From positions 1-29,941 of the forward strand of contig JAFPYK010000211.1 of the NCBI GenBank assembly GCA_017412265.1: DNA of 29,941 nucleotides. The letters are read 5' to 3'. The notes beneath the pieces are model-generated. The model saw nothing but the letters and a program-made list of their open reading frames with translations. It did no database searches and was not told where the DNA came from. This DNA is from Lachnospiraceae bacterium (GTDB lineage Bacteria; Bacillota; Clostridia; Lachnospirales; Lachnospiraceae). Positions within the stretch are counted from its first letter, which is position 1; each line of letters opens with the position of its first letter. Shown here one piece after another: positions 1,069-28,994 of this stretch. A program made the translations under genes and the position numbers.

Positions 1069-1069
1069 C

Positions 1070-1795: not shown

Positions 1796-3551
1796 CGTCC
1801 TTCATCTCCTCTGTCGCATAGCGGTAATAATCCTTCGCGAACCGGTACTGCCGCAGCGAATACTCGCCGAATTCCACGCCGAGGCTCCGCTTGTACTCGC
1901 ACCAGTTGCTCCACAGAAGTCCGCAGGCCGCCACATAACAATAGATCTTGATGCGCGTCTCCTTCGGGCAGTCCCCTTCAAAATACAGGTCGATCAGCCG
2001 GTCGATCTGCCATTTGTCATACAGGCTGTAGATCGAGAACATCGCCAGGTCCACATGCGGGTCCTGCATGCCCGAGTACTCCCAGTCCGTCAGCTGGAGC
2101 TCCTCCTCCCCGTCTGCCCCCTTGCAGAAGAGGAAATTATCCGGCACCGCGTCGATGTGCGTCAGCACACGCTCCTGCACATGCCAGTCAATGTAGCTCT
2201 TGAGAGAGAGGACCTGCTCCTTCGTCTTCTCGTAATCCCGGTACACCGAAGGCGCCCCTTTCCAGAGCGACTCATAGAATTCGATCTGTCCGAAGATGTC
2301 AAATGAATGGTCCACCGTGAGCTTCATCTCGTGGAACTCGCGCAGCTTGTCCATGCATCTCTTCAGGTCCGGCACACTGTCCGGATCCGCCACCCGGATT
2401 CCCTCCAGGTACTTCGTGATCTTGAATCCGTTCTCTGGATTGATATAGACCACGTCGTCGCAGAGCCCGTGCCCGGCGATCGTCTGATAGACCTTCGCCT
2501 CGTGGTGACGGTCGATCAGCTGGTCCGTGCCCTCGCCCGGGATCCGCATGATGAATTTCTCGCCGCGGACCGAGAAGAGGAAGGACCGGTTCGTCATGCC
2601 CTTCTTGAGCACCTGAATGCCCGTGATCTCCTCATGCCTGCAGCCGAAGACGCCGCAGATGACGTCCAGTGCGTCCGACTGCAGATGGTTCGAATCCGCG
2701 TCCAGCTCCCGCAGCTGCTCGTACGTATTGATCTCGACGATCTCATCCCCGGGCGCGATCCGCGCGCAGACGGTCATCCGGCCGTCCTCGAAGAGCGCCT
2801 TCTCCCAGAACGCGTCGTCATTCTTCGGATCCGCGCACAGAAGCGAGATCCGCTCCCGCAGCAGGCCCGCCTCCGGGCCCGTCAGGTAAGCGATTCCGAT
2901 CATACGGCTCCCGGTCTCGCCCGCGTCCGTGTGGACCAGCTCCCCCTTGCGGTTGATGCGCACTTCGCTCTCCGCGTCCGGCTGGTCGCTCACCATGTAC
3001 CAGGAATACAGCTCCCTCTCCGCAAACGGATTCTTCTCGCACCACAGATCCGCCGGAAGGATGTAGGTATTCGAGATCAGCCGGACCGCCAGGTCCAGGC
3101 TCTTTATATTATTTCTTGTCGCATATTCTTCGTTATAGATCAGCTGAACACCGAATTCATCGATCAGGTACTCAAACGCATCCTTCATGTAGCCGACCAC
3201 CACGGTGATATCCCGGATGTTGACTTCATGCAGCTGCCGGATCAGCCGGTCGATCAGCCGCTCCCCGTGCACCTCCAGAAGCCCCTTCGGCGTGTTCAGA
3301 TTGATCGGGACCATCCGCATGCCGAATCCCGCCGCAAGAATGATCGCATTCTTCGGCCGGTGCGCGGTCATCTCCTCCGCGGCCTTCCTCGTCAGCCGGA
3401 TCCCGTCATCTACAAACCCCGCATCCATCAGGCTGCGCAGCGAACGGTTGATCATCCCCAGCGAACAGCCGCAGCGCTCCGAGAGCACACGCTGATTCAC
3501 ATAAGGCTCCGCTGCCAGCGAAAGGAGAACATCTTTTTCTTGCTTGTTCAT
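1779..3551 (-). CDS. Three-domain fusion: winged HTH + LicC-like nucleotidyltransferase + LicA-like choline/ethanolamine kinase (590 aa)
   Basis: N-terminus NQRVLSERCGCSLGMINRSLRSLMDAGFV (wHTH); AIILAAGFGMRM..PKGLL (NTase); KKGMTNRSF, MRIPGEGT, THIDAVPDNFL, DWEYSGM (choline kinase-like). Start moved from 3581 to the ATG at 3551 because of the GAGAGG RBS and because 3581 lies only about 10 nt downstream of the -10 box, leaving no room for an RBS. Confidence 0.9.
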   Translation of the reverse strand: MNKQEKDVLLSLAAEPYVNQRVLSERCGCSLGMINRSLRSLMDAGFVDDGIRLTRKAAEEMTAHRPKNAIILAAGFGMRMVPINLNTPKGLLEVHGERLIDRLIRQLHEVNIRDITVVVGYMKDAFEYLIDEFGVQLIYNEEYATRNNIKSLDLAVRLISNTYILPADLWCEKNPFAERELYSWYMVSDQPDAESEVRINRKGELVHTDAGETGSRMIGIAYLTGPEAGLLRERISLLCADPKNDDAFWEKALFEDGRMTVCARIAPGDEIVEINTYEQLRELDADSNHLQSDALDVICGVFGCRHEEITGIQVLKKGMTNRSFLFSVRGEKFIMRIPGEGTDQLIDRHHEAKVYQTIAGHGLCDDVVYINPENGFKITKYLEGIRVADPDSVPDLKRCMDKLREFHEMKLTVDHSFDIFGQIEFYESLWKGAPSVYRDYEKTKEQVLSLKSYIDWHVQERVLTHIDAVPDNFLFCKGADGEEELQLTDWEYSGMQDPHVDLAMFSIYSLYDKWQIDRLIDLYFEGDCPKETRIKIYCYVAACGLLWSNWCEYKRSLGVEFGEYSLRQYRFAKDYYRYATEEMKDVVSSK

Positions 3552-3557
3552 GAACAA
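3544..3557. promoter_or_regulatory. Perfect 14-bp palindrome TTGTTCATGAACAA over the start codon of the wHTH fusion; candidate operator
   Basis: The palindrome is read directly from the sequence, with an extra TGAACA half-site at 3575-3580. Operator function is inference. Confidence 0.4.
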
Positions 3558-3591
3558 TGACCTCTCAATATTTGTGAACATCTACAGCCAC

Positions 3592-3783: not shown

Positions 3784-3812
3784 TTGACATCATTTTGTGA
3801 ATATGTTATATT
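3784..3812 (+). promoter_or_regulatory. Sigma70/SigA promoter with extended -10, driving the ugd cassette
   Basis: TTGACA (3784-3789), 17-nt spacer, TG-n-TATATT (-10 at 3807-3812). Confidence 0.8.
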
Positions 3813-3885
3813 TTCCAGCAGACAACCGCAGAATGTGTTGTCTTCAGCAACAGATTATTACTCTCAGACGAGAAAGGAATATAAG

Positions 3886-5388
3886 ATGAAACGTTTGGAC
3901 CGTACCGATATGATCCGGCAGATCGTCTCCCGCCGCAAAGCGCTGCATCTCACCCAGACAGAGCTCGCGCAGCGCACCGGGATGAACCGTTCTGTCCTGT
4001 CCAACCTGGAAAATGGTATCTATATGCCCAGCATCGAACAGCTGGAATTGATCGCAGAGGAATTATCGATCGATATCACCTCTCTTTATAAGGAAGATTC
4101 CCCCGCGAAGGCGGAGGTTCCCGGAACTTTTCAGATCGCCGTCGCCGGTGTCGGATACGTCGGCCTCTCCCTGGCCGTCCTGTTATCCCAGCACCACCGC
4201 GTGACCGCCGTGGACATCGTCCCCGATAAGGTCGACAAGGTCAACCGCCTTCAGTCCCCGATCCGCGACGAATACATCGAGCGCTTCTTCTCGGAAGCCT
4301 CCTTGGGCGAGCGCGAGCTGGACCTGAAGGCCGTCACCGACGGCAGCCCGGCTTACCTGGCCGCGGACTTCATCATCATCGCCGCGCCGACCAACTACGA
4401 TGCCAAGCTGAATTTCTTTGACTGCTCCGCGGTCCGCTCCGTGCTGGACCAGGTGCAGGCCGCCTGCGCGTCCCGCCAGGATTCCCCGGTCGTGGTCATC
4501 AAGTCCACGGTGCCCGTCGGCTTCACCGCCCAGGTGCGCAGGGAATACCCCGGCCTCAAGATCATCTTCAGCCCGGAGTTCCTCCGCGAATCCAAGGCCT
4601 TATACGACAATCTGTATCCGAGCCGCATCATCGTGGGATGCGACGAAGACACCCGGGAGGATGCCCGGATCTTCGCCTCCCTCCTGCAGCAGGGCGCCTG
4701 GAAGAACCCCGTGGAAACCCTCTTCATGGGCACGACCGAGGCAGAGGCGACGAAGCTCTTCGTCAACACCTACCTCGCGCTGCGCGTATCCTTCTTCAAT
4801 GAGCTCGACACCTACGCAGAGGTGAAGTCGCTGAACTCCGCCTCCATCATCAAGGGTGTCTGCACCGACCCCCGCGTCGGCGACTTCTACAACAACCCGT
4901 CCTTCGGCTACGGCGGCTACTGCCTGCCGAAAGACACGAAGCAGCTTCTCGCCAACTATCAGGACGTTCCCGAGAACCTGATCCAGGCCATCGTGGAATC
5001 GAACCGGACCCGAAAGTCCTTCATCGCAGACCGCGTCCTGGAGATCGCAGGTGTCTACGGCAGCAACGATTCCTACTCCCCGGCGCGCGAGCAGCAGCAG
5101 AGAGACATCGTCGTCGGCGTGTACCGGCTGACGATGAAGTCCGACTCGGACAACTTCCGCCAGTCCTCGATCCAGGGCGTCATGAAGAGAATCAAGGCCA
5201 AAGGCGCCACGGTCATCATCTATGAGCCCACCCTGGAAGACGGCTCCACGTTCTTCGGCAGCAAAGTCGTCAACGACCTGGAGACCTTCAAGAAAGCCTG
5301 CGGCTGCATCCTCGCCAACCGCTACGACCCCGCGCTCGACGACGTCGCCGACCGCGTCTACACCCGTGACCTGTTCCGCAGAGACTGA
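3886..5388 (+). CDS. ugd: XRE/Cro-type HTH fused to UDP-glucose 6-dehydrogenase (500 aa)
   Basis: [29 protein letters not shown] (XRE HTH), then [48 protein letters not shown] (catalytic Cys) and YTRDLF. Start moved to the ATG at 3886 (AAAGGA RBS); the ORF-track start at 3784 is the -35 box. Confidence 0.93.
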
Positions 5389-5422
5389 TGAACGATCCGT
5401 CAGGAAGGAGAATTTTACCAAT

Positions 5423-6601
5423 ATGAGCAAGAAATGCGAAGAACGCTTTTATGAGATCTATCAGAGAGACGCAGAAGGCGTCTCCTTCTGCCCCTACCGT
5501 ATCTGCCCGATCGGTGCCCACTCGGACCACAACCTCGGCAAGATCACCGGCCTCGCGATCAACAAGGGCATCCATATCGCCTACCGCCCGAAGAAGAACG
5601 GCGTCATCGAGATGGCTTCCCTCCAGTTCCCGAAGCGAGCCCAGTGGCACATCCATTCCGTGCCGAAATTCAAGGAAAATGACTGGGCCGACTACCTGCG
5701 CGGCGCGACGTGGGCTCTCGAGAAGCACCACACCCTGAACGTCGGCCTCTGCGGCGTCATCGAGGGTTCCCTCCCGATCGGAGGCCTCTCCTCCAGCGCG
5801 GCCGTCATCCTGGCCTTCCTCTCCGCTCTCTGCAAGGTGAACGGAATTCATTTAACCGCGCAGCAGATGATCGACACCGCGTTCGACGCGGAGAAGAACT
5901 ACGTCGGCGTCTCCGTCGGCACCCTGGACCAGAGCTGCGAGGTGTTAGGCAAGAAGGACCATCTCCTCTACCTCGACACCAGGGACAACTCCTACGAGCT
6001 GATTCCCACCAGCCCGGTGATGAAGCCCTACAAGATCGCGATCTTCTTCAGCGGCCTGGAGCACAGCCTCGCCGGATCCAAGTACAATATGCGTGTCGAC
6101 GAGCTCCGCTCCGGCGTCTACGCGCTGCAGGCCTATGCCGGTCTCCCTTATGGGAAGTTCAACGAAGCCAACGCGAGAAATGTCCCGCGCGAGATCTATG
6201 ACGCCTACAAGGACCGCCTGCCGATCCCGTGGGCGAAGCGCTGCGAGCACTGGTATACGGAGTTTGAGCGCGTGGAGAAGGGCGCCGAAGCCTGGCGCCG
6301 CGGCGACATCGAGGAATACGGCCGCCTCTCCTTCGAGTCCGGCTGGAGCAGCATCCACAACTGGGAATCCGGCGCTCCGGAGCAGATCCGTCTCTACGAG
6401 ATCATGCGCGAGACCAAGGGCATCTACGGCGGGCGCTTCAGCGGAGCCGGCTTCAAGGGCTGCTGCATGGCCCTGATCGATCCCGCCTACGTGGAGAGCA
6501 TCGAAGAATCTGTCACAAGCAAATACCTGGGATCTTTCCCGGAACTCACCGGCAAATACTCCTTCCACCTGTGCGAGAGCGCCAACGGAACCGAACGTTA
6601 A
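5423..6601 (+). CDS. GHMP-family anomeric sugar kinase, galacturonokinase-like (392 aa)
   Basis: PYRICPIGAHSDH, GLSSSAAV, GTLDQS, FSGL, YNMRV, KRCEH and YGGRFSGAGFKGCCMA. Start set at the ATG at 5423 after an AAGGAG RBS. The family is certain; the substrate is inferred. Confidence 0.85.
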   Translation: MSKKCEERFYEIYQRDAEGVSFCPYRICPIGAHSDHNLGKITGLAINKGIHIAYRPKKNGVIEMASLQFPKRAQWHIHSVPKFKENDWADYLRGATWALEKHHTLNVGLCGVIEGSLPIGGLSSSAAVILAFLSALCKVNGIHLTAQQMIDTAFDAEKNYVGVSVGTLDQSCEVLGKKDHLLYLDTRDNSYELIPTSPVMKPYKIAIFFSGLEHSLAGSKYNMRVDELRSGVYALQAYAGLPYGKFNEANARNVPREIYDAYKDRLPIPWAKRCEHWYTEFERVEKGAEAWRRGDIEEYGRLSFESGWSSIHNWESGAPEQIRLYEIMRETKGIYGGRFSGAGFKGCCMALIDPAYVESIEESVTSKYLGSFPELTGKYSFHLCESANGTER

Positions 6602-6620
6602 GTTCAGAAAGGACTCACAT

Positions 6621-7358
6621 ATGAAATGCATTGTTTTAGCGGCAGGCTATGCCACGCGTCTGTATCCTCTGACCGAGAACTTTCCGAAGCCCCTTCTGAA
6701 GGTCGGCGACAAAACCATCCTGGACTGGCTGCTCTGCGACATTGACCGCTCCGGCCTGATCGACGAATACATCGTCATCTCCAACCACCGGTTTGCCGGC
6801 CATTTTCAGGCATGGGCAGAGAATCACACGCTTCCTCTTCGCATCATCGACGACGGGACCTCTTCCAACGAGACGCGTCTGGGCGCGGTCCGTGATATCC
6901 AGTTCGCTCTGGATGAGACCGGCATCAGCGACGACCTCCTGATCGTCGCCGGCGACAACCTCCTGGACTTTTCCCTGGTCTCCTTCCTGCAGTATGCGCA
7001 GGCGAAGCAGACCTCCTGCACGATGCGCTACTACGAGGCAGATGAAAAACGCCTGAGCAAGAGCGGCGTCGCCGAGATCTCGGACGATGAGCGGATCTTG
7101 TCCTTTGAGGAGAAGCCGGCCGTCCCCAGGTCCCACTGGTGCACGCCTCCCTTCTACATCTACCGCAAGGAAGACGCGGCCCGCATCAAGGACGCCCTGC
7201 AGGACGGATGCGGCACCGACGCTCCCGGCAGCCTGATCTCCTGGATGTGCCGGCACACCGTCATGCACAGCATGCAGATGCCCGGCAGCCGCTATGACAT
7301 CGGCGACCTGAAGAGCTACGAGAACGCACAGAAGAATTATCACGGATTACAGAAGTGA
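6621..7358 (+). CDS. Sugar-1-phosphate nucleotidyltransferase (NTP_transferase family, 245 aa)
   Basis: MKCIVLAAGYATRLYPLTENFPKPLL, AGDN, FEEKP, DIG motifs; AAGGA RBS. Confidence 0.9.
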   Translation: MKCIVLAAGYATRLYPLTENFPKPLLKVGDKTILDWLLCDIDRSGLIDEYIVISNHRFAGHFQAWAENHTLPLRIIDDGTSSNETRLGAVRDIQFALDETGISDDLLIVAGDNLLDFSLVSFLQYAQAKQTSCTMRYYEADEKRLSKSGVAEISDDERILSFEEKPAVPRSHWCTPPFYIYRKEDAARIKDALQDGCGTDAPGSLISWMCRHTVMHSMQMPGSRYDIGDLKSYENAQKNYHGLQK

Positions 7359-7367
7359 GGTAAAGCG

Positions 7368-8432
7368 ATGAACAAGACTAGAGTCGAACTGGAAGGAAAA
7401 ACCATCCTTGTGACCGGATCTCCCGGATTCATCGGGGCCAACCTGGTCCTCAAGCTGCGGGAAGAGCTGCATCAGGGAAGAGTCATTTCCCTCGATAATA
7501 TGAACGAATATTATGATCCCGCCTTGAAGGATTACCGGCTTGCGCTGATCGAGAAGCAGGATTCCCCCGTAGAGCACATTTTCATCAAAGGCTCCATCGC
7601 GGATGCCGCTCTGGTCCGCGAGGTATTTGAGACCTACCGCCCGCAGGTGGTCGTGAACCTGGCCGCACAGGCCGGCGTCCGGTATTCGATCGATCATCCG
7701 GACGTCTATATCGAGAGCAACCTGATCGGCTTCTTCAACATTCTGGAGGCCTGCCGCCACTACGAGGTCGAGCACCTGGTCTACGCCTCCAGCTCCTCCG
7801 TGTACGGAGGCAACACCAAGGTTCCCTTCTCCGTGGAGGACAAGGTCGACAACCCGGTCTCCCTGTACGCGGCAACCAAGAAGAGCAATGAGCTCCTGGC
7901 CCACAGCTACTCCAAGCTGTACAACATCCCTTCCACGGGCCTGCGTTTCTTCACGGTCTACGGACCCGCCGGCCGGCCGGATATGTTCTATTATTCCGCC
8001 ACGGAGAGACTTGTGCGGGGCGAGTCCATCAAGCTCTTCAACTACGGCAACTGCAAGAGAGACTTCACCTATGTGGACGATATCGTCGAGGGCATCTACC
8101 GCGTCATGCAGGGTGCTCCCGCGAAAATGACCGGAGCGGACGGGCTTCCGATCCCGCCCTACGCGGTCTACAACATCGGCGGCGGCACACCGGAGAATCT
8201 GATGGATTACATCCAGACGCTCCAGGAGGAGCTGGTCGATGCCGGCGTTCTCCCGCAGGACTATGATTTCGAGGCCCACCGGGAGCTGGTCGGCATGCAG
8301 CCCGGCGATGTGCCGGTCACCTACGCGGACTCCTCTGCCCTGGAGCAGGACTTCGGCTTCCGGCCGTCCATCGGAATCCGCGAGGGCCTTCGCGCATTTG
8401 CCCGCTGGTACAAGGAGTACTACGGCATCTGA
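7368..8432 (+). CDS. UDP-glucuronate 4-epimerase (extended SDR, 354 aa)
   Basis: TGSPGFIG, NLAAQAGVRYS, YASSSSVYG, PVSLYAATKKSNEL, GLRFFTVYGPAGRPDM and QPGDV are characteristic of the UDP-GlcA epimerase subgroup. Confidence 0.88.
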   Translation: MNKTRVELEGKTILVTGSPGFIGANLVLKLREELHQGRVISLDNMNEYYDPALKDYRLALIEKQDSPVEHIFIKGSIADAALVREVFETYRPQVVVNLAAQAGVRYSIDHPDVYIESNLIGFFNILEACRHYEVEHLVYASSSSVYGGNTKVPFSVEDKVDNPVSLYAATKKSNELLAHSYSKLYNIPSTGLRFFTVYGPAGRPDMFYYSATERLVRGESIKLFNYGNCKRDFTYVDDIVEGIYRVMQGAPAKMTGADGLPIPPYAVYNIGGGTPENLMDYIQTLQEELVDAGVLPQDYDFEAHRELVGMQPGDVPVTYADSSALEQDFGFRPSIGIREGLRAFARWYKEYYGI

Positions 8433-8451: not shown

Positions 8452-8492
8452 AAAAACGCCTGAGAATCCGCAGATTCTCAGGCGTTTTTTTT
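8452..8492. terminator. Bidirectional intrinsic terminator between the convergent epimerase and wzx genes
   Basis: AAAAACGCCTGAGAATC-cgca-GATTCTCAGGCGTTTTT perfect inverted repeat; T8 on the plus strand and T5 on the minus strand. Confidence 0.92.
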
Positions 8493-8499
8493 GTCATTC

Positions 8500-9996
8500 T
8501 TACTTATTCTTATGCAGTTTCTTTTTGAGGAAAGCCATCAGCGGCTTGATCTGCTCTCTGTGCAGATACAGGTTGATTCCGATATAGAGCAGGACGATGA
8601 CGACCTTGAATCCGAAGTTCAGAATGATGAACTTATTGCCGTACTTGAAGAAGGACAGTGACAGTCCCGCGGCGATAAACCCGGATACCATCACGAAGTT
8701 TAAGAGGAAATCCTTCATCTTCAGGCCGATGTCCTCGAACCTCCGGCTGATGAAATAGATGATCAGCACGCGGATCACCATCGAGATTCCGTCCGCCGCA
8801 ATCGATCCCAGGACCCCCCACGCGGGGATCAGGAAGTACGACAGGAGCACGTTCAGGATACTGCTCGTCACGGTCGCGGTGAAGAGGAACTTCGAGGCCT
8901 TCTTGTAGTAGAACAGGACCTCCACGTAGAAATAATAAGCCGTCTTGATCGTGAACACCAGCACGATCAGCGGGACGTATTTCCACGCGTCATAGTAATC
9001 CTTCTTGATGAACAGGATGATGTAATCATGGGCAAAAAGTGATATACCCAGGAAGAACAGGCCGATCACCGCGCACAGCAGCTTCACGGTCTTGCGGATG
9101 TTGCTCTTGTAGGCCTCTTCTCTCGCGTGCAGCTTCTCGTACAGCCAGGGGCCGTACGCATAATCCACATAATTCTGCACCGTATCCGCCATGTTGCCGA
9201 ACTGCGTCGCAACCGTATAGACGCCCAGGCTGCCGAGCGACACCGCGTCGCCGATCAGGACCTTCGATACCAGGACCGCGATCTGCGTCGACAGGTTGTG
9301 CGGCATGATCGGCACCGAGTACTTCAGCGCCTTCTTAAGCAGCGGCAGGTCCAGGCAGTACACCATCTGCCGGGTCGCCAGCATGTAGATGATGAAATAG
9401 ATCGAGTGAGCGCCGTAAGAGATCGCAGACGCAAGGATCGTTCCGAGCGCGCCCATCTTGAGGACCACGACAAAGAGAATGTTCAGCCCCAGAGTCACGA
9501 AGAAGAACACGATCGTAACCAGCGAGCTGTGCATGGCCTTCTGCTGGCTTCGCAGCACATTGTCGAAGATCAGCTGCTGGCAGTGAAACAGCAGGGCGAT
9601 CAGGCTGACGAAGATGATCGGATAATACGGTACCCCGGAGAAAATGTGCTCCGATACCAGTCCCCGCAGCAATGTCAGCAGCGTCCCGAACACAAGGCCG
9701 GAGAGCAATGTGAACAGGCTGATCGTACCATAGAAGCGTTTGAGCTGCTCCGGGTCATCCTTCAGGTCCACATAGAAGCGCATGACTGCAGAGAACAGGG
9801 AAAATGCAACCACGAAGCCCATCGTGGTGATGAAGCTGGTGGCAATACTGTTAATTCCGTAGTCCTCGGTCGTCAGATACGCGGTGTAGAGCGGAAGGAG
9901 GAAGAAGCTGAAGCACTTCAGCAGCAGTCCGCTTGCCGAATATATAAACGAGTTTAATACCACCCGTTTTGTTGTTGTATTTTTCTGTTCAGCCAT
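8500..9996 (-). CDS. wzx: Wzx polysaccharide repeat-unit flippase (498 aa)
   Basis: NSFIYS...FFLLPLYTAYLTTEDYG N-terminus and many hydrophobic segments; last gene of the operon. Confidence 0.9.
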   Translation of the reverse strand: MAEQKNTTTKRVVLNSFIYSASGLLLKCFSFFLLPLYTAYLTTEDYGINSIATSFITTMGFVVAFSLFSAVMRFYVDLKDDPEQLKRFYGTISLFTLLSGLVFGTLLTLLRGLVSEHIFSGVPYYPIIFVSLIALLFHCQQLIFDNVLRSQQKAMHSSLVTIVFFFVTLGLNILFVVVLKMGALGTILASAISYGAHSIYFIIYMLATRQMVYCLDLPLLKKALKYSVPIMPHNLSTQIAVLVSKVLIGDAVSLGSLGVYTVATQFGNMADTVQNYVDYAYGPWLYEKLHAREEAYKSNIRKTVKLLCAVIGLFFLGISLFAHDYIILFIKKDYYDAWKYVPLIVLVFTIKTAYYFYVEVLFYYKKASKFLFTATVTSSILNVLLSYFLIPAWGVLGSIAADGISMVIRVLIIYFISRRFEDIGLKMKDFLLNFVMVSGFIAAGLSLSFFKYGNKFIILNFGFKVVIVLLYIGINLYLHREQIKPLMAFLKKKLHKNK

Positions 9997-11119
9997 TCTT
10001 CAGCCCTTCTAACCACAGCTCGCGGTGCGCCTCGCATTCGATGAAATTCTCAAGCGCGATGCGCTGTGCTTTTGTATATTTTTTCTTGAGAAGCCGGCGA
10101 TAGTAGCGGCCGCCGCTCAGGCGGTTGAGCACCTTGGTCGCGAAGCCTCTCTTGCCGAAGACCGCGTTCTCATAGACGTGGAACATCTCCGCGGCAAATT
10201 TGCGATAATTCTCCTCGATGAACCCGTCCTTCCGGATCTCCTCGCCGCGTGCCCGGAAGGCATCCAGGATCTCTGCCGCCTCTGCTCCTTCGGCCAGCCG
10301 CACCGCATGCCCGTTCTTGACCACCGGATGGTATGTGACATTCAGCCCGCCTTCGGTGTCCACCTCCAGCAGCAGTCCCGTCAGCCAGCACTCGTGGTCA
10401 TCCAGGTCAAAGAGAAGATTGCCCTGCCCGTAGATGATTCTGCCGCCCTGATACTTCTCCTCACAGCCGATGCAGTGAGAATGCTGGCAGATCACGAGAT
10501 CCGCCCCCTTCTCCACCAGCTTGCGGCAGGTCTTCTGAAGCTGCGGGGAAGGATACCGGTAGAGCTCCTTGCCTCCGTGGTACAGAACGATCACATGATC
10601 ACAGTTCTTCTTCAGCTCTGCCACCTGGTCCGGAACGGTCAGCGGGTCGAACGGATTCGCACCCGGGCGCTTCTCTCCTGCGATCGAGAACTCGTGCTCC
10701 GCGCAGGCGATGACTCCGACGCTCACATCTCCCTTCTGCAGGATATACGGCTTCGCGGCCTCCGCGAGATTCTCTCCGGCACCCACATGGGCGATCCCGG
10801 CCTCATCCAGCACGCGGATCGTCGAGAAGAGGCCCTCCGTCCCCTGGTCGAGGATGTGATTGTTCGCAGCCGCGGCCAGCGTAATCCCCAGAGCCTTGTA
10901 TCCCGCGATGCAGGATGTCGCGGCCCGCAGGGCCGGCCCGTGCTTCTCAATCGGGGTCTGGTGGTCCGTCAGAGGCACCTCCAGGTTAATCACCGCCGCA
11001 TCCGCCTGATGTAATAAGCTCAACAGTTCGGAGCCGACAAGGCCGGCTCCGTCCCCTTTTTCAAATAAGGCGGTATTCGCTTTTGTAGGGACGACATCTG
11101 CCCCAATCATCAACTTCAT
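9989..11119 (-). CDS. CapA/PGA_cap-family metallophosphatase-fold protein (376 aa), no obvious signal peptide
   Basis: GAD, INLE, ANNHILDQG, HGGKE, QHSH and YGQGNLLF motifs. Confidence 0.85.
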   Translation of the reverse strand: MKLMIGADVVPTKANTALFEKGDGAGLVGSELLSLLHQADAAVINLEVPLTDHQTPIEKHGPALRAATSCIAGYKALGITLAAAANNHILDQGTEGLFSTIRVLDEAGIAHVGAGENLAEAAKPYILQKGDVSVGVIACAEHEFSIAGEKRPGANPFDPLTVPDQVAELKKNCDHVIVLYHGGKELYRYPSPQLQKTCRKLVEKGADLVICQHSHCIGCEEKYQGGRIIYGQGNLLFDLDDHECWLTGLLLEVDTEGGLNVTYHPVVKNGHAVRLAEGAEAAEILDAFRARGEEIRKDGFIEENYRKFAAEMFHVYENAVFGKRGFATKVLNRLSGGRYYRRLLKKKYTKAQRIALENFIECEAHRELWLEGLKNG

Positions 11120-11134
11120 CTGTCTGTTCTCCTG

Positions 11135-12007
11135 TTATTTTGCAGCTCTCTGCTGAAAGAGGCGGATCCGGTTCGTGTGATATTTCACCTCGTGGATGCG
11201 TCTGGGCAGCGGCGGTACACTCATATAATCACCGTAGAGCAGCGCCAGCAGTTCCTCGCGCCGCACCGGGACGCGGATCGGCCCGTAGCCCGTCTCGACG
11301 ACCTCGGTCTCCTTCATGAGCTCTGCCGGGTAATCCTTCCAGTCCGCATAGGTATCCGCAGTCACATAATAGGTAGCTCCCTCCAGCGGGTACTTCTCCG
11401 CAAGCTCCCGGTAAGTCCGGTCGATCTTCCCGACGGACGCCAGCAGGGCCGGCAGTTTTCTCTTCAGAAGCAGCGAAGCAAACCGCCGCGGCCGTCCCAT
11501 CGACTCCTCGATCAGATTCACAAACTTCCCGTAGCGCTTCTCCGAGATATCCGCCATCTGCCTGGCAAATGCCCTCCGCTCCGCCTCATCCTCCGGCGAG
11601 CCGATCAGGAAGAAGACATCCACGTGCAGCGCCTCGGTCCGGTACTCCTTCGGAGCCAACCGCATGATCATATGCCGGCAGCGCGGATCCAGGTCCGGCG
11701 AGTACGCATAATACTCGCTGCCAAGGTCCTTCCGGAGCGCCTCCAGAAGCTTCTCCTTCTCCGCGAAAGGCACCAGCACGTCCACGTCATAGTCCCACGG
11801 AATCTGGCCTCCGTCGCGCACGACACCCAGCAGAGACCCGTAGGCGAGCTGGTAATTGACCTGGTTCTTCTCACAGACCCGGTGCAGCTTGGCCAGCGTC
11901 TTCGCCGTCACGCCCTGATACACCTGAAATTCCTTGTATGTCTCTTCAAAATCCGCGGGACACTCATCCCACGCCAACGCTTCCTTTAAAAACTCTTCCG
12001 ATGTCAT
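11135..12007 (-). CDS. licD: LicD/fukutin-family phosphotransferase (290 aa)
   Basis: [34 protein letters not shown] motifs. Confidence 0.88.
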   Translation of the reverse strand: [290 protein letters not shown]

Positions 12008-12928
12008 CTACGACTCCTTGCCGGGCAATTTGATCCAGCTGCCCAGCAGCAGATCATATTCCTTCTTGTCAAACGGTGCGAACCCCGCCCCGTCATAGAA
12101 CGTCAGCTCTCCGAAATACAGCTTCCCGCTGACACAGTACCAATCCACCCGGATGTGCGGGATTCCTTCCGACAGGATGCGGGAGCAACGAAGCATCTCA
12201 TCCAGTACCGGCGGCTTCGGGAAATCCTTCCCCGAGGTGTGGTATTTCCGGAGCTGTCCCTGCGAGATCTCGCTTCTCTTCCACTCCACGTCATAGTAAT
12301 CCTGCGTGGGATGGTCCGAGTATCTCCCCTGGTGCAGCTCGATGAGCTTCGGCTCTCCGCCGAAGCACAGGACCTTATAATCCCTCAGTTCCTCTCCGGT
12401 GTCGTCCTCCATGTACTGCTCTGCGATGATGCGCGGCTTGATATCCTTGTACGGCCACTCCCGGAACTTCTGATAATAGTTCTGCTTCAGCCCCTCGCGC
12501 AGGGTCTTCCGGGCCTTCTCTTCATCCAGCTTGCTGCGGTCCTTGCAGATCACGAGCCCGTGGCTGTCGTGCGTGCACTTGAGCACGAACTGGTCGGGCA
12601 GCTCCTTAAAATCGATGTCCTCCGCCCGCTCCCAGACACCCAGATTCGGAATCACATACTGTGCCCCGATCTTCTGCGAGACATATTCCTTCACCGCATA
12701 CTTGTCTGCCATCGTCGTATACAGCGGATTGTGATCATGCAGCTTCAGCCACTGCAGCTTCTCGTTGAATGTGCGCGGGTTTTCCAGATCCAGCGGATAT
12801 CCCATCAGCAGCCGGAACTTCTTCTTCAGGAACTTCTCATCCGACATCTTATTCAGGAAACCATAATCCGAGAGCACCGCGAAACGGTACTTCGGATCGC
12901 GCAGCAAACGAATGCATTTTTCGATCAT
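12008..12928 (-). CDS. TupA-like ATP-grasp protein, copy 1 (306 aa)
   Basis: PRTFNEKLQWLKL, DKYAVKEYV, FVLKCTHDS, REWPYKDIKPRIIAE, DYKVLCFGG, RVDWY, GELTFY. Confidence 0.88.
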   Translation of the reverse strand: MIEKCIRLLRDPKYRFAVLSDYGFLNKMSDEKFLKKKFRLLMGYPLDLENPRTFNEKLQWLKLHDHNPLYTTMADKYAVKEYVSQKIGAQYVIPNLGVWERAEDIDFKELPDQFVLKCTHDSHGLVICKDRSKLDEEKARKTLREGLKQNYYQKFREWPYKDIKPRIIAEQYMEDDTGEELRDYKVLCFGGEPKLIELHQGRYSDHPTQDYYDVEWKRSEISQGQLRKYHTSGKDFPKPPVLDEMLRCSRILSEGIPHIRVDWYCVSGKLYFGELTFYDGAGFAPFDKKEYDLLLGSWIKLPGKES

Positions 12929-12992
12929 GACTCTACTCCCGTCCTTTCATAGATCTTATCTACATTCTGATGATTTATTCAGTTATCGTCAG

Positions 12993-13017
12993 AAAAACTG
13001 CCGGCGCCTGCCGGCAG
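12993..13017 (-). terminator. Intrinsic terminator inside the polysaccharide operon
   Basis: Minus strand CTGCCGGC-aggc-GCCGGCAG-TTTTT, starting about 15 nt after the stop of tupA copy 2. Confidence 0.75.
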
Positions 13018-13032
13018 CACCTCTTACTTCTT

Positions 13033-13944
13033 CTATCTCTGCTTCGGCGGCAGGACGATCCAGTCTCCCAGCGTTCTGTCCCATTCCTCCGGCGTGAACT
13101 CCTCGAAGCCCCCGCCCGGGAAGAACGTCATCTCTCCGAAGAGGACCTTCCCGTCCAGATCATAGAAATCCACCCGCACGAAAGGAATCCCTTCGCTGAG
13201 GATCTCCGCAAGCCTGCACATCTCTTCATACTGCTCCGGCTTGTCGATCACTTCACTGCTGGCAGGATAATGCCGCTCGAAGGTCATCCGCTCCCAGTCC
13301 TTGTCGAAGAACGTGACCTTCAGCCCCTTCCCGTTGAAGCGGTCCGTGCAGACAAATGAGCACTTGACCTCGCCTCCGAAGCACATGATCTTATAATCAT
13401 TGAGCTCCCCGTGAGCATCCTCCAGGTAGGGCTCTGCGAGAATTCTCGGCTTGACGTTCTTGTACGGCCACTCTCTGCCGTAGTAGAAGAAATTCCTCGT
13501 CAGGCAATGATCAATCTTCTGTTTGGCGGCCTCTTTGTCCAGCCGGCTCTTGTCCTTGCAGATGACCAGTCCGCCGCTGTCATGCGTGCATTTGAGCACA
13601 AACTGATCCGGAAGAGCATCAAAATCGATCTCCTCAAAGGAATCCCACACGCCCAGCGTGGGAATGACATATTCTCTGCCGATCTGCTTCGACACATACT
13701 CCTTGACCTTCTCCTTGTCTACCAGGTCCGTATACTTCGGATTGTGGTCATAGAGCTTCAGCCACTGCAGCTTCTCGTTGAACGTCTTCGGCTCTTCGAG
13801 GTTCGGCTCACAGCCCATCACCACCCGGAATTTCCTGTGGATGAATTCCTCATCCGAGAGCCGGTTTAAGAACCCTTTGGACGCATTGACAAGAAATCTG
13901 TACTTTGGGTCTCTCGCATAGCGGATTAATTTCTGAATCAACAT
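13033..13944 (-). CDS. TupA-like ATP-grasp protein, copy 2 (303 aa)
   Basis: PKTFNEKLQWLKL, FVLKCTHDSGG, REWPYKNVKPRILAE, RVDFY, GEMTFFPGGG. Start moved to the ATG at 13944 (GAGGAG RBS). Confidence 0.88.
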   Translation of the reverse strand: MLIQKLIRYARDPKYRFLVNASKGFLNRLSDEEFIHRKFRVVMGCEPNLEEPKTFNEKLQWLKLYDHNPKYTDLVDKEKVKEYVSKQIGREYVIPTLGVWDSFEEIDFDALPDQFVLKCTHDSGGLVICKDKSRLDKEAAKQKIDHCLTRNFFYYGREWPYKNVKPRILAEPYLEDAHGELNDYKIMCFGGEVKCSFVCTDRFNGKGLKVTFFDKDWERMTFERHYPASSEVIDKPEQYEEMCRLAEILSEGIPFVRVDFYDLDGKVLFGEMTFFPGGGFEEFTPEEWDRTLGDWIVLPPKQR

Positions 13945-14067
13945 CGGTTTCTCCTCGCGCAAGTGAAACATATTGCCTGTCAGAGAAACAACGTTTCATA
14001 CTCCCATGTATGCTCAGATTCGTTACTTAGAGATCCGTTTTACCGGGACGCCTCCCGGCCTGCCCGG

Positions 14068-20629: not shown

Positions 20630-21451
20630 TTATCTCCTCAGCAGTTTTTGATAAATGAACTTCTGGAAGCCTACCGGCAGAATGAATGTGCCCAGCTGGG
20701 CGACGGCAACCTTCAGGAAATCAAAGAAGGAGTTAAAGCCGGATCTCCAGGCGTTGTAACGGATCTCAATCAGGATCTTCGTGTTGATCCAGGATTTTCT
20801 CTTCTTGTAGGTCCCCTCGTCAAACCGGAACCGGAACAGCGGCTCCGGCAGGTTGGCACATACGGCTCCCGCGGAAAGCATCCGGATCCACAGGTCCGTG
20901 TCCTGGTTCTTCCGGTAATCCGAATAGCAGCCGACCTTCTCAACCATTGACTTGCGGTACATGACCGTCGGATGGTTGAAGGGATCCCTCGTCTTCGCGA
21001 AACGGTAGATCTCCTCATTCGTCAGGGGGACCCTCCGCTCCCCGACGACATTGTCGATCGTGCCCACGAACTCCTTGACCGGGCAGCCGATAATATCCAG
21101 AGAAGGGTTCTTCTCAAACTCCTCCGCCTGGCGGCGGCACCGCTCCGGCAGCGAATAATCGTCCGAATCCATGCGCGCGATCAGCTCGCAGGAGGCCTGC
21201 TTGATACCTTCGTTCAAGGCGCGGCCCAGTCCGACATTGACCGGCAGAGAGACCTCCTTGATCGGGGCTCCCGCCTGCTTCTTCTCGTCAATGACACGCT
21301 GCAGCTCCTCCGTGACCGGGCCGTCCTTGACCAGGACGATCTCCTTCGCGGGGTAGGTCTGGCTGAACATACTGTCCAGTGCCAGAGAGAAATACGCCGG
21401 ATTGTCTTTTCCGTAGACGGTCATTAATACAGAATATGGTTCCATCGTCAT
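20630..21451 (-). CDS. GT2-family glycosyltransferase (about 273 aa)
   Basis: YSVLMTVY, LVKDG, NVGLGRALNEG, ARMDSDD, FNHPTVM, QDTDLW. The start may instead be 21445. Confidence 0.9.
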   Translation of the reverse strand: MTMEPYSVLMTVYGKDNPAYFSLALDSMFSQTYPAKEIVLVKDGPVTEELQRVIDEKKQAGAPIKEVSLPVNVGLGRALNEGIKQASCELIARMDSDDYSLPERCRRQAEEFEKNPSLDIIGCPVKEFVGTIDNVVGERRVPLTNEEIYRFAKTRDPFNHPTVMYRKSMVEKVGCYSDYRKNQDTDLWIRMLSAGAVCANLPEPLFRFRFDEGTYKKRKSWINTKILIEIRYNAWRSGFNSFFDFLKVAVAQLGTFILPVGFQKFIYQKLLRR

Positions 21452-21466
21452 CTTCCCATCCAATAC

Positions 21467-22156
21467 TCAATGTTTTAATACTGCAAATACAGTCTCAAAC
21501 ATAATCTTCAGGTCTCCGAACGCAGACATCTCCCGGATGCCCTTCAGATTCCACTCCATCTTGCCGGGCAGCACGTCCCGGACATAGACCAGGTCCACGT
21601 CCTCCGCCTCTTTCAGGAGGCGGCTCTCATCCTTGTAGCGGATGCTGGTCTCACTCGTAATGCCGGCCGGCAGCAGCAGCGTCGCCCGGTATTCCGGTTT
21701 ATATTTCTTCACATATTTCACGGCTTCCGGCCTGGTTCCCACGAAGGACATGGTCCCCTGGAGCACGTCGATCAGCTGCGGCAGCTCATCGATCCGCAGA
21801 TGTCTCAGCTTTGCTCCGACCCGGGTGATCCTGGGGTCGCCCCCCACGGTCACGGCCGAGCCGATCTGGTCCGCGTGGTCCACCATCGTCCGGAACTTAT
21901 GAATCTTAAATCGTTTTCCGTACTGGGTCACCCTCTCCTGCCGGTAGAATACCGGTCCGGGAGAATCCAGCTTGATCCAGATCGCGACCGCCGCCATCGG
22001 CAGAGCCAGCAGAACCAGCAGGATCCAGGCAACGGTTACGTCAAATGCACGCTTTAACGTCAGCAGTCCCTGTTTTTTCACAAGGCTGTCATAGTACGGA
22101 CGCACTTCCTCATTCTGCAGAAATGCCGGCAGTTCTTCCCACCTGCGAAGCTTCAT
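21467..22156 (-). CDS. Initiating undecaprenyl-phosphate sugar-1-phosphate transferase (Bac_transf; resembles pneumococcal TacA / Bacteroides WcfS)
   Basis: KRAFD, QERVTQYG, KFRTM, DPRITRVG, DELPQL, MSFVGTRPE, GITS. Start at the ATG at 22156 (GAGGG RBS); 22171 is an alternative. Confidence 0.9.
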   Translation of the reverse strand: MKLRRWEELPAFLQNEEVRPYYDSLVKKQGLLTLKRAFDVTVAWILLVLLALPMAAVAIWIKLDSPGPVFYRQERVTQYGKRFKIHKFRTMVDHADQIGSAVTVGGDPRITRVGAKLRHLRIDELPQLIDVLQGTMSFVGTRPEAVKYVKKYKPEYRATLLLPAGITSETSIRYKDESRLLKEAEDVDLVYVRDVLPGKMEWNLKGIREMSAFGDLKIMFETVFAVLKH

Positions 22157-22172
22157 CGGCTTGACCCTCATT

Positions 22173-23492
22173 TCACAGATATTCCTTCACAACCTCGCTG
22201 AGCACCTCGATGACGTAAGACACATCCTCATCCGAGAGCAATGTGTGCAGCGGCAGGGTGATCAGGTTGTGATAATAGTCATAGGCGTTCGGATAATCCT
22301 TGATATCCGCGCCCAGCGCCTTGTAGGCAGTCATCATGGGCAGCGGCTTGTAATGCACATTCGTGGCTACGCCCTTCGCGGCCATCTTCTCGATGATCTC
22401 GCCGCGCTGCTGCTCCGTGATGCCGGGCACCCGGATCAGGTACAGGTGGCAGCTGCTGTCCATCGTCTCATTGTGGTGAACCAGGTGAGAGATGCCCAGC
22501 GCGTCGCAGGCCGCGTCATATCTGTTCAGAATCCAGGTTCTGCGCGCGAGCAGTCCGGGATAGCGGTCCAGCTGGCGCAGTCCCATCGCCGCCATGATAT
22601 CAGTCATATTGCATTTGTACCAGGGGCCGATGATATCGTACTCCCAGGCACCAAGTTTCGTCTTGGCCAGGGCGTCCTTGTTCTGCCCGTGCAGGGACAG
22701 AAGCTGGTACATGTGATAGATCTCCGCGTTATCAATGCCGGGAATCGGAAGCCACGCCGACGCTCCGCCCTCCGCGGTGGTGAAATTCTTCACCGCGTGG
22801 AAGCTGAAGGATGTAAAATCAGCCATCTGTCCGCAGTTGAGCCGCTTCCCGCCGAACACTCTCGAAGCCCCGAGGCTGTGAGCGCAGTCGGCCACGACAG
22901 CCACCCGGCCCAGAGCCTTCTGGATCCGGGAACCCAGATCCGACAGCACGTCCTCATGGCAGTCCATCGGCGTGAAGAGCGATCTCTTCTCCTCGACGAT
23001 CCGGTTGATCTTCTCGTAGTCGCAGACAATGCCTCCCAGGTCCACGGTGACAATCGCCTTAGTCCGGGGAGTGATCAGTGCGGCCAGCTTCTCGTAGTCC
23101 ATCTCCGGCATATGCGTGTCTGGATCTCCGTCTTTCTGAATATCCGCAAACACAACAACAGCACCGCAATGAATTGCGGCGCTCGCACTAGCCGTATATG
23201 TATATGCGGGAACGATCACTTCGTCCCCCTCCCGCACGCCCAGGATCCGCAGATTCAGTTCCTCTGCGGCCGTGGCGGAATTCAGGCAGACCACCCGGTT
23301 CGCATACCGGGCAGCCCCCTCCTCACTCTCACAGTCCACGTCGTTGCGGCCCGTCTCGATGTAAGCCGCAAGACGTCTCTCCAGCAGCTTGGTCCTCGGT
23401 CCGGTGGTAATCCATCCGGACTTTAACGCTTCGATGACCTCCGCAATCTCATACTCTCCGATATCCGGAGGGCTGAACGGAATTTTTCTCAT
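22173..23492 (-). CDS. DegT/DnrJ/EryC1/StrS PLP aminotransferase (AatB/WcfR-like, 439 aa)
   Basis: IPFSPPDI, SGWITTGP, LNSATAA, DCAHSLG, SFSFHAVKNFTTAEGG (PLP Lys), YKCNMTDI, NVHYKPLP, ITLPLH. Confidence 0.92.
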   Translation of the reverse strand: MRKIPFSPPDIGEYEIAEVIEALKSGWITTGPRTKLLERRLAAYIETGRNDVDCESEEGAARYANRVVCLNSATAAEELNLRILGVREGDEVIVPAYTYTASASAAIHCGAVVVFADIQKDGDPDTHMPEMDYEKLAALITPRTKAIVTVDLGGIVCDYEKINRIVEEKRSLFTPMDCHEDVLSDLGSRIQKALGRVAVVADCAHSLGASRVFGGKRLNCGQMADFTSFSFHAVKNFTTAEGGASAWLPIPGIDNAEIYHMYQLLSLHGQNKDALAKTKLGAWEYDIIGPWYKCNMTDIMAAMGLRQLDRYPGLLARRTWILNRYDAACDALGISHLVHHNETMDSSCHLYLIRVPGITEQQRGEIIEKMAAKGVATNVHYKPLPMMTAYKALGADIKDYPNAYDYYHNLITLPLHTLLSDEDVSYVIEVLSEVVKEYL

Positions 23493-23506
23493 ATTCTCTC
23501 ACCCTT

Positions 23507-25627
23507 TCATTGATCTTCTTCCGACTCGTCCGGCTTCTCTCCGGCTGCCTCGGCTTCGTGATTCTGCTCCTCAGCCAGAAGCGTCTCGTAGGTGGCATCC
23601 TTCTCCGGCTCCTGGTTCTCCTGCGCCGGATGATAGGTGGACACCATGTTCGCCACCAGTGTCCGGATCTCCTTCTTGTTGGCATAGGCCGCGCGCATCA
23701 GCGCCTCCAACTGCCCCAGGAATTCATCTACGTCAAACGGGATCGGGCACCCGATATGAATCAGGTCGTTCTCCGTCTTGCGCAGGCCCTCCTCCGCCAT
23801 CAGCTTCTCTTCATACAGCTTCTCGCCGGGCCGGAGGCCGGTATATTCAATCTTGATATCGACGTCCGGCTTAAACCCGGACAGGCGAATCAGGTTTCTC
23901 GCAAGTGTATCGATCTTGACCGGGCTTCCCATATCCAGGACGAAGATCTCTCCGCCTCTGGCATAAGTGCCCGCCAGCATCACCAGTCGCACCGCCTCGG
24001 GGATGGTCATGAAATACCGGATGATATCCGGATGCGTGACCGTCACCGGACCGCCCTTCTCGATCTGCTTCTTGAAGATCGGGATCACGGAACCGTTGCT
24101 CCCCAGCACGTTGCCGAAGCGCACGGCCACAAACTCCGTCTTCACATCCTTGAAGACCCTGCCCGTGCCGTCCTTGTCCGCATTCTCAAATCCCACATGG
24201 GTAAAGAGCTGCGGGATCTCATCCGCCTTGCCGGCCTTGATCTTCTCGTCGAAGCTCTGGATGAACATCTCGCACAGACGCTTGGAAGCGCCCAAGATAT
24301 TGGTCGGGTTCACCGCCTTGTCGGTGGAAATGAGCACGAACCGCTCACAGCCGTGGACCATCGCCGCGTAAGCTGTCTTGTAGGTTCCGATCGCGTTGTT
24401 CTTGATCGCCTCGTTCGGGCTGTCCTCCATCAGCGGCACATGCTTGTGGGCCGCCGCGTGATAGACGATCTGCGGACGGTAGTCCTCAAAGACCTCGAAC
24501 ATCTTCCGGCTGTCACGCACGGATCCGATCAGGGTCACCAGATCGAGCGCCGGGTACTTCTCCCTCAGCTCCAGCTGGATCGCGTACGCGTTGTTCTCAT
24601 AGACGTCAAATATAATCAGCTGCTTCGGATCGTGTGCCGCAATCTGCCGGCACAGCTCGCTTCCGATCGATCCGCCGCCGCCCGTTACCAGGACGACCTT
24701 GCCGCTCACGAACTGGTACACACCGCTCATGTCCGCCTTGATGGGATCTCTCCCCAGGAGGTCTTCCACAGAGACCTTCTTCATGGCGCTGACCGAGACC
24801 TCACCGTTCACCAGCTGGTACATGCCTGGCAGATTCTTCAGTTCACAGTCCGTCTCCTGGCAGATATTCAGGATATCCCTTCTCTCCATGGCAGAGGCAG
24901 ACGGAATGGCCAGAAAGATCTTATCGATCTTGTATTTATCCACCGCTGCCAGGATCTCGTCCCGGCCGCCGACGATCGGTACACCGTCCACGTAGCGGTT
25001 CCATTTGTTCGGGTTGTCATCGATGATGCAGACCACACGGTCCTGAAGTTCCTTCGCTCTCTGGATCTCCCTCAGGATGTTCTGCCCGGCGATGCCCGCG
25101 CCGATCAGCATGACCCGCTTGATATCATGATCGTCGGCCCGGTGCTCCCGCAGAAGCAGGACGAACCGGTAGGCGAACCGGACACCCAGGATGAAGACAA
25201 ACTGGATCAGTGCTCCGATGCAGTAATAAGAGATGGGCATCCGCTGATACAGAGCCGTAATCGCCACGATATGGAACACTGCCGTGATCGCGGAGGAAAA
25301 ACCGACACGCATCAGTTCGGAATAGCTGGCGAATCTCCACAGGCTCCTGTAGAGATGCAGGAACCAGAAGACCACAAGGCAGAACACGGTATAGATCGGG
25401 ATAAACTTCTCCCAGGCAACGATATACTGCGGCTCGATCTTGGAGAACGTGCAGTCGAAGCGAAGCCAAAGTGCCATAAAATATGCCATATTGACCACGA
25501 TGATGTCGTACACTCCGAGAACCAGGGCAATCATCTGCCAATGTTCCAGGCCGAACGGTCTTTTCTTTTTTCCTTTTTTCAGGCTCGAACTCGATACCTT
25601 TTCATCCTTTCGATGTTCAGTGCCCAT
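23507..25627 (-). CDS. Membrane-bound UDP-GlcNAc 4,6-dehydratase (CapD/PglF/AatA family, 706 aa)
   Basis: Four N-terminal TM segments; IGAGIAG; TGGGGSIGSELCRQ; HAAAHKHVP; STDKAVNP; RFGNVLGSNGSV; RYFMTIPEA; GLRPGEKL. Confidence 0.93.
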   Translation of the reverse strand: MGTEHRKDEKVSSSSLKKGKKKRPFGLEHWQMIALVLGVYDIIVVNMAYFMALWLRFDCTFSKIEPQYIVAWEKFIPIYTVFCLVVFWFLHLYRSLWRFASYSELMRVGFSSAITAVFHIVAITALYQRMPISYYCIGALIQFVFILGVRFAYRFVLLLREHRADDHDIKRVMLIGAGIAGQNILREIQRAKELQDRVVCIIDDNPNKWNRYVDGVPIVGGRDEILAAVDKYKIDKIFLAIPSASAMERRDILNICQETDCELKNLPGMYQLVNGEVSVSAMKKVSVEDLLGRDPIKADMSGVYQFVSGKVVLVTGGGGSIGSELCRQIAAHDPKQLIIFDVYENNAYAIQLELREKYPALDLVTLIGSVRDSRKMFEVFEDYRPQIVYHAAAHKHVPLMEDSPNEAIKNNAIGTYKTAYAAMVHGCERFVLISTDKAVNPTNILGASKRLCEMFIQSFDEKIKAGKADEIPQLFTHVGFENADKDGTGRVFKDVKTEFVAVRFGNVLGSNGSVIPIFKKQIEKGGPVTVTHPDIIRYFMTIPEAVRLVMLAGTYARGGEIFVLDMGSPVKIDTLARNLIRLSGFKPDVDIKIEYTGLRPGEKLYEEKLMAEEGLRKTENDLIHIGCPIPFDVDEFLGQLEALMRAAYANKKEIRTLVANMVSTYHPAQENQEPEKDATYETLLAEEQNHEAEAAGEKPDESEEDQ

Positions 25628-28943: not shown

Positions 28944-28994
28944 TTTCCCATCAAGCTTTCTCATGCGGTGTGCGCATGTGATCTATATCAGGCA

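Follow-up and report, generated by a model that had tools for sequence, protein, structure and literature searches.

The namesake of the TupA family is TupA of Bacillus halodurans C-125, whose teichuronopeptide is a polymer of uronic acid and amino acid. In Campylobacter jejuni HS:2, the C-terminal TupA-like domain of Cj1438 (Cj1438C) amidates the glucuronate C6 carboxylate, using serinol-phosphate or ethanolamine-phosphate as the amine, and it acts after the sugar has joined the chain, on a glycoside or chain-bound glucuronate (PMC11800379). The CapA/PgsA proteins of poly-gamma-glutamate systems have been proposed to introduce D-Glu by epimerisation (PMC8179263). MslH, the epimerase of the C-terminal Trp of a lasso peptide (PDB 8GQ9), binds the C-terminal carboxylate of the peptide at a single metal and uses His88/Asp91 and His295/Asp11 to invert C-alpha (PMC10406935). 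Herein, we describe a locus in which two TupA ligases and a CapA protein are encoded together, on a 29,941-nucleotide stretch of DNA from a Lachnospiraceae bacterium (contig JAFPYK010000211.1 of assembly GCA_017412265.1). This whole stretch, referred to as the window, is one contig (C100) of a 1.96-Mb genome that is 84% complete. The ligases are predicted to amidate a uronic acid with amino acids, and CapA is predicted to epimerise the attached residue.

The genes in question are five consecutive intact genes, all on the minus strand.

13033..13944, minus strand: tupA2, 303 aa, PF14305 at E 8e-75
12008..12928, minus strand: tupA1, 306 aa, PF14305 at E 5e-72
11135..12007, minus strand: licD, PF04991
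9989..11119, minus strand: capA, 376 aa, PF09587 at E 1.7e-50
8500..9996, minus strand: wzx flippase, PF01943, the last gene of the operon

From tupA2 to wzx, the intergenic gaps are 104, 0, 15 and -8 nt, the last being the overlap of wzx with the capA stop, and a purine-rich ribosome site lies ahead of each gene. The first-pass annotation had started tupA2 at the ATG at 13944, which is correct and has a GAGGAG ribosome site. Its statement that the five genes are consecutive also holds in a second public assembly (GCA_017453615.1, 99.5% identical), where the same genes follow in the same order and capA shows 12 synonymous and 4 non-synonymous codon differences.

Compared with the described systems, the locus shares with Cj1438C the PF14305 family, a surface-polysaccharide setting, a uronate supply and, by prediction, the same acyl activation at the uronate C6 (PMC11800379). 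However, the window ligases are stand-alone and two in number, belong to a Wzx/Wzy pathway and have CapA as partner, and no pyridoxal phosphate (PLP) enzyme or HAD protein for amino-alcohol phosphates accompanies them as in the Cj1438C/Cj1435 system. The window CapA resembles MslH in fold, solubility, both catalytic dyads and three of four metal ligands, but it does not keep His261, has a CExH helical domain of its own and stands in a glycan context rather than that of a ribosomally synthesised and modified peptide. Escherichia coli O110 likewise combines an ATP-grasp ligase, Wzx and a full-length CapA of the soluble subfamily, whereas its single ligase is RimK-like and its CapA is 30% identical. 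With CapA/PgsA of poly-gamma-glutamate systems, the likeness is PF09587; unlike them, the window CapA lacks CapB/CapC partners and a membrane anchor, and it is separate from generic CapAs in the tree. In comparison with the B. halodurans C-125 teichuronopeptide as described, there is no sign of a long polyglutamate chain at the window locus.

Both TupAs span the whole PF14305 domain (242.6 and 251.9 bits against a gathering cut-off of 25) and retain the ATP-grasp residues (Lys, DYK, RxD and GExT), which in TupA2 are K118, D183-Y-K185, R257-x-D259 and G270-E271-x-T273, together with the conserved E171. The two proteins are 54% identical and diverge most right after the DYK motif. TupA2 falls in a clade (SH-aLRT 95) in which 16 of 20 rows lie directly beside capA, and TupA1 is placed elsewhere; the TupA tree, like the CapA tree below, came from a quick search of subsampled rows with SH-aLRT support only. 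Because capA-adjacent TupAs dominate this clade, TupA2 is probably the original CapA partner. The 54% identity and the separate tree positions led us to reject a recent tandem duplication as the origin of the pair. A PDB search returned no sequence relative of TupA. The TupA genes of the E. coli O167, O46/O134 and O143 clusters are 26-39% identical to the window TupAs. By analogy with Cj1438C, it is highly probable that the window TupAs amidate a uronic-acid C6 carboxyl with amino acids. No PLP enzyme or HAD phosphatase for a serinol route occurs in the window, and no homologue of the O143 PLP or HAD protein was found in 80 related loci, which makes plain amino acids the likelier amines. The locus has only one obvious glycosyltransferase and therefore maybe one uronate per repeat; in that case the two enzymes could load alternative amino acids, like those of the mixed or doubly substituted glycans of H. 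influenzae d and P. mirabilis O27/O28, or act serially to give a dipeptide.

CapA starts directly at the first catalytic beta-strand (Asp8), and its top 19-residue hydrophobicity window is 1.24, so it has neither signal peptide nor transmembrane segment, as had been noted at first reading. MslH is the only solved sequence relative of CapA. The AlphaFold2 model of CapA (pLDDT 94.6) matched MslH with a VIA Z of 35.7 and an rmsd of 2.2 A over 288 residues, against a Z of at most 16.6 for YmdB-type phosphoesterases, the next family. Foldseek agreed (E 1e-19, TM 0.67), and identity in the structural alignment is about 27%. The key residues of MslH are D11, E44, N87, H88, D91, H259 and H295, with a single-metal site of E44, N87, H259 and H261 (PMC10406935). 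By sequence alignment and motif, the seven key residues correspond to D8, E47, N87, H88, D91, H181 and H215 of CapA, which are invariant in 118 homologues; both His/Asp dyads (H88/D91 and H215/D8) are thus kept. The Asn that follows Glu in the two-metal YmdB is Val in CapA, as in MslH, and the second-metal ligands of phosphoesterases are absent. Furthermore, CapA ends in a helical domain of its own that carries a CExH motif. CapA scored 74.7 bits against the NCBIfam MslH equivalog NF038314, far below the cut-off of 700. This score and the glycan rather than lasso-peptide context indicate that CapA is not an MslH orthologue, although it probably works like MslH. CapA is predicted, with considerable likelihood, to be an MslH-like C-alpha epimerase of a uronoyl-linked amino acid.

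Relatives of the window CapA were found in 339 stretches of GTDB species genomes, and neighbours were counted in the best 80 (44-61% identity), which span Bacillota, Bacteroidota, Spirochaetota, Fusobacteriota and others. A TupA lies within the fetched flank in 68 of the 80, with a full-length TupA directly adjacent to capA in at least 47, and the TupA-CapA co-occurrence statistics that the first-pass annotation had called for thus reveal a real association. In four more loci, an unrelated RimK-like ATP-grasp stands directly upstream of capA (72/80 with an ATP-grasp in total), so CapA appears to track the product and not one ligase family. The remaining eight include three loci cut by contig ends and four that look catabolic. 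Two full-length TupAs occur in six loci. Among 150 host-family genomes drawn evenly, TupA was present in 20 (26 genes), with a subfamily CapA alongside in only one of the 26 cases; generic CapAs were present in most of 60 host-family genomes with a match, never adjoining TupA. A TupA encoded by one genome of the host family is identical to that of Coprococcus catus, which places the host in the Lachnospiraceae. Cultured strains with a tupA-capA locus include Coprococcus catus VPIC661 (L041) and Anaerobutyricum hallii DSM 3353 (L040). These co-occurrence counts are descriptive, since the genomes share ancestry and cannot be treated as independent. CapA thus depends on a ligase of either family, whereas the ligase can do without CapA, which is the pattern expected of an optional step on the ligase product. 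In addition, no hydrophobic segment was detected in 84 subfamily CapAs, as opposed to 18 of 20 generic CapAs, and the subfamily was set apart from generic CapAs in the tree. The single host-family copy of the subfamily that lacked a ligase, a degenerate member (L122:8492-9646, genome G137), has lost E47, H181, H213 and the CExH motif; it lies beside a GT2 gene, and no ligase was detected within 18 kb. The source genome has a second, generic CapA (G000:C293:1779-2522) with a hydrophobic segment and no link to TupA. A plasmid search gave only distant haloarchaeal CapAs.

The RimK-like ATP-grasps form a non-TupA family that has no good Pfam model and is found in O-antigen and capsule clusters with or without CapA.

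L095:3529-4524: RimK-like ATP-grasp, with homologues at L042:8914-9969, L050:8086-9135, L071, L074, L075 and L142:8392-9417

One Sphaerochaeta contig (L028:4750-15892) carries capA in two copies and tupA in three, on opposite strands.

E. coli O-antigens, in which structures can be compared with genes, served as a test. Searching with the low-GC capA gene by blastn gave no E. coli homologues. The O110, O46/O134, O167 and O143 clusters were located in RefSeq genomes with published serotype primers (PMC7403468); the strains are primer- and RefSeq-typed and differ from those whose structures were solved. In the O110 O-antigen, galacturonic acid (GalA) is amidated with D-allo-threonine (PMC7685785). 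Both O110 clusters read GT-GT-ATP-grasp-wzx-capA-wzy-GT (GT, glycosyltransferase), with the ligase intact in strain cM2a and split in two in L6-21, and ugd and an NAD-dependent epimerase lie just outside. D-allo-Threonine is the C-alpha epimer of L-threonine. The O110 CapA aligns with the window CapA over its full length (30% identity, E 1e-47; hhalign 100%), keeps all catalytic residues as well as the subfamily E141, E143 and C-terminal CExH, and clusters with the subfamily (SH-aLRT 93). No paper on the function of the O110 capA gene was found in the literature. The O167 cluster (L-Ala amide) has a TupA and no CapA. The O143 cluster, whose product we take to be a serinol amide by its presumed equality with S. 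boydii 8, has a PLP enzyme, a HAD and a TupA, the C. jejuni route, and likewise no CapA. No subfamily CapA was found in the O167 and O143 clusters or chromosomes, whereas the O110 control matched at E 4e-63. The structure-gene comparison thus yields a single positive (O110), two negatives that fit (O167 and O143) and O46/O134, which is discordant as published. O91 (glycine amide) is uninformative since its chromosome has no PF14305 match. Three further E. coli ligase clusters without CapA (L142/L143, L144 and L145) were not used, as they bear no serotype label.

Taken together, a mechanism can be proposed. A Wzx/Wzy-type repeat unit with GalA or glucuronic acid (GlcA) would be built on a lipid carrier in the cytoplasm. 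The TupA ligases would activate the uronate C6 carboxyl with ATP and couple an L-amino acid to it through the amino group, the two ligases most likely loading different amino acids. The product would be an N-uronoyl amino acid with a free alpha-carboxylate. Since this is the same N-acyl, free-carboxylate unit as a peptide C-terminus, we propose MslH-like action on the glycan: the soluble CapA would bind the alpha-carboxylate at one metal and, in the manner of MslH, use H88/D91 and H215/D8 to invert C-alpha, which would leave a D-amino-acid amide. Selection of the D form would fall to a glycosyltransferase, Wzx or Wzy at a later step. The combination of TupA amidation and CapA epimerisation is moderately probable, an estimate that reflects the link between the two readings. 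Amidation by Cj1438C and epimerisation by MslH are established, and the present analysis shows the genes, the residues, the fold, the co-occurrence and a subfamily member in the O110 cluster; the steps in this organism, their order and the identity of the amino acids are what we infer.

The uronate in this scheme is suggested by a cassette convergent to wzx, and other parts of the window bear on the glycan.

1-3581, left end: predicted BCCT-type transporter, LicC and helix-turn-helix (HTH)-LicC-LicA
3784..8432, plus strand: UDP-glucose dehydrogenase with a fused HTH, galactokinase-like GHMP kinase, nucleotidyltransferase and NAD-dependent epimerase
8452-8489: bidirectional terminator-like hairpin beyond the end of wzx
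12997..13018, minus strand: between tupA2 and tupA1, a GC-rich hairpin with a T-run after it
19359-20624, minus strand: soluble beta-propeller of 421 aa with no Pfam match
20630-21463, minus strand: GT2, the sole one of the locus
21467..25627, minus strand: PglF-like dehydratase, DegT aminotransferase and initiating transferase, inferred to make a primer of the amino sugar AATGal type

The cassette at 3784..8432 is the likely source of UDP-GlcA/UDP-GalA. Its kinase and nucleotidyltransferase are paired again in about 9 of the 80 capA loci, and homologues of a uronate-supply dehydrogenase or epimerase were found in 20 of 40 full-length ligase-capA loci. The minus-strand operon is long and of the Wzx/Wzy type, ending in stealth, tupA2, tupA1, licD, capA and wzx; upstream, it also encodes TagF-like, Wzy_C, IspD/TarI-like and epimerase/dehydratase proteins. 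The GT2 and the beta-propeller are the only candidates for uronic-acid addition. The beta-propeller follows the same GT2 in three loci (L029, L042 and L043), and among its Atlas relatives fusions to GT2, GT4 or GT32 domains are frequent. LicD is a LicD-family phosphotransferase, probably for phosphocholine, and its presence is explained by the transporter, LicC and HTH-LicC-LicA at the left end. As members of a ligase-CapA module, LicD and Stealth were rejected, with homologues in 4 and 1 of the 80 capA loci, respectively. The hairpin at 12997..13018 may be a terminator-like or RNA-stability element. Its T-run lies downstream of tupA2 even though wzx sits further downstream, and a second GC-rich hairpin at about 14040-14065 on the minus strand leaves tupA2 hairpin-flanked on both sides. 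Upstream of the operon (27249-29939, minus strand) are two paralogues, 44% identical, with weak GDSL/ILEI similarity, and a third relative lies on contig C136.

Several observations weigh against the proposed mechanism. The MslH metal ligand His261 aligns to G183 of CapA, leaving three of four metal ligands, and the invariant E185 may take its place. The O110 case is the single positive in which structure and genes coincide; its CapA is a distant, long-branch member at 30% identity and its ligase is a RimK-like ATP-grasp, not a TupA. O46/O134 was published as glucuronoyl-D-allo-threonine, and the cluster has TupA alone, with no subfamily CapA on the chromosome searched. A 2016 corrigendum reportedly changed this residue to L-Thr. 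The uronic acid of the window polymer is itself suggested by the neighbouring cassette. Finally, four subfamily CapAs (L062:9860-12087, L080:8896-11146, L081:5788-13002 and L084:6921-13005) have no ligase and intact catalytic residues. Their neighbours are ABC transporters, alpha/beta-hydrolases (AXE1 and weak glucuronoyl-esterase-like matches) and an amidohydrolase or GH106-like protein, and these loci possibly serve the catabolism of amino-acid-amidated glycans.

These same four loci speak for the view that TupA amidates the uronate and CapA is a metallo-hydrolase, either an amidase with an editing or trimming role on the decoration or a Cj1435-like phosphatase acting after ligation of ethanolamine-phosphate or serinol-phosphate. 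The calcineurin-like fold with its retained NNH..D motif and a choline/ethanolamine kinase within the window are consistent with such an activity. However, the second-metal phosphoesterase ligands are missing, and the match to MslH is twice as strong. Homologues of the O143 PLP or HAD proteins are lacking in all 80 loci and LicAC occurs in one; moreover, the serinol-type O143 cluster relies on a HAD phosphatase and does without CapA, and a hydrolase would leave the D-allo-Thr of O110 unexplained. We consider the hydrolase unlikely, and the editing or transfer hydrolase favoured in the first-pass annotation is the weaker reading in light of the fold, the active-site residues and the O110 cluster, which favour an MslH-like epimerase. 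The two ligases could instead work in series, one loading the uronate and the other lengthening the attachment into a dipeptide or short peptide whose terminal or first residue CapA would invert; this would be compatible with epimerisation. The name TupA itself, which derives from a polyglutamate-containing teichuronopeptide, fits such a sequence of steps, as do two intact, diverged TupAs beside one clear glycosyltransferase, hence probably one uronate per repeat. Two full-length TupAs are nevertheless found in just six loci, the window TupAs are no conserved pair, and the amino acids of known glycans are different single residues placed on one or two uronates, as in P. mirabilis O27/O28 and H. 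influenzae d (PMC10609480); serial ligation seems rather improbable here. A bolder version is doubtful and speculative: that the widespread and previously undescribed cytoplasmic CapA subfamily comprises the glycan-linked amino-acid epimerases behind surface-polysaccharide D-amino acids (e.g., D-allo-threonine), and that here two ligases and an epimerase assemble, without the ribosome, a dipeptide side chain of mixed chirality on a wall polymer that is zwitterionic and bears phosphocholine.

The peptide-decorated glycan envisaged at first reading had two possible acceptors. Amino-acid decoration of a uronic-acid carboxyl gained support from the Cj1438C chemistry and from TupA in the O167 and O46/O134 clusters, whereas the free amine of AATGal lost ground. 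If the ligases activated the carboxyl of an amino acid, they would acylate the 4-amine of this sugar, which is likely to be free because the operon has a dehydratase and an aminotransferase without an N-acetyltransferase, and N-aminoacylated amino sugars exist. Yet only 8 of the 40 full-length ligase-capA loci, and none of the E. coli clusters, encode an AatB-like aminotransferase, no AATGal-type pathway is found in the TupA clusters of E. coli O167, O143 and O46, and the characterised family member, Cj1438C, activates the sugar carboxyl, all of which makes acylation of AATGal very unlikely. Synthesis of a poly-gamma-glutamate capsule, which the Pfam name PGA_cap alone would suggest, has a negligible probability: CapC (PF14102) and PgsB/CapB (TIGR04012) were not found in the locus or in the 84%-complete genome, and the CapA subfamily is soluble and apart from generic CapAs in the tree. 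The earlier remark that the window has no capBC and that classical synthesis is unlikely therefore extends to the genome.

The amidation of uronates with amino acids is already known as a decoration, and what the MslH-like reading of the soluble CapA probably adds is an L-to-D epimerase. No paper on the TupA-CapA pair was found in a literature search that covered mostly open-access work. If epimerisation by CapA is correct, many annotations of 'poly-gamma-glutamate synthesis protein CapA' in polysaccharide loci would be re-assigned, and E. coli O110 would gain a candidate gene for its D-allo-threonine. It would also provide a rule to predict L- or D-amino-acid decoration from gene clusters. 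The O110 cluster, as a small cultured system, makes the epimerase idea directly testable. D-residues could plausibly confer resistance to host or phage amidases and alter serology, and the chemistry of MslH/PgsA-type epimerases would be extended from peptides to glycans.

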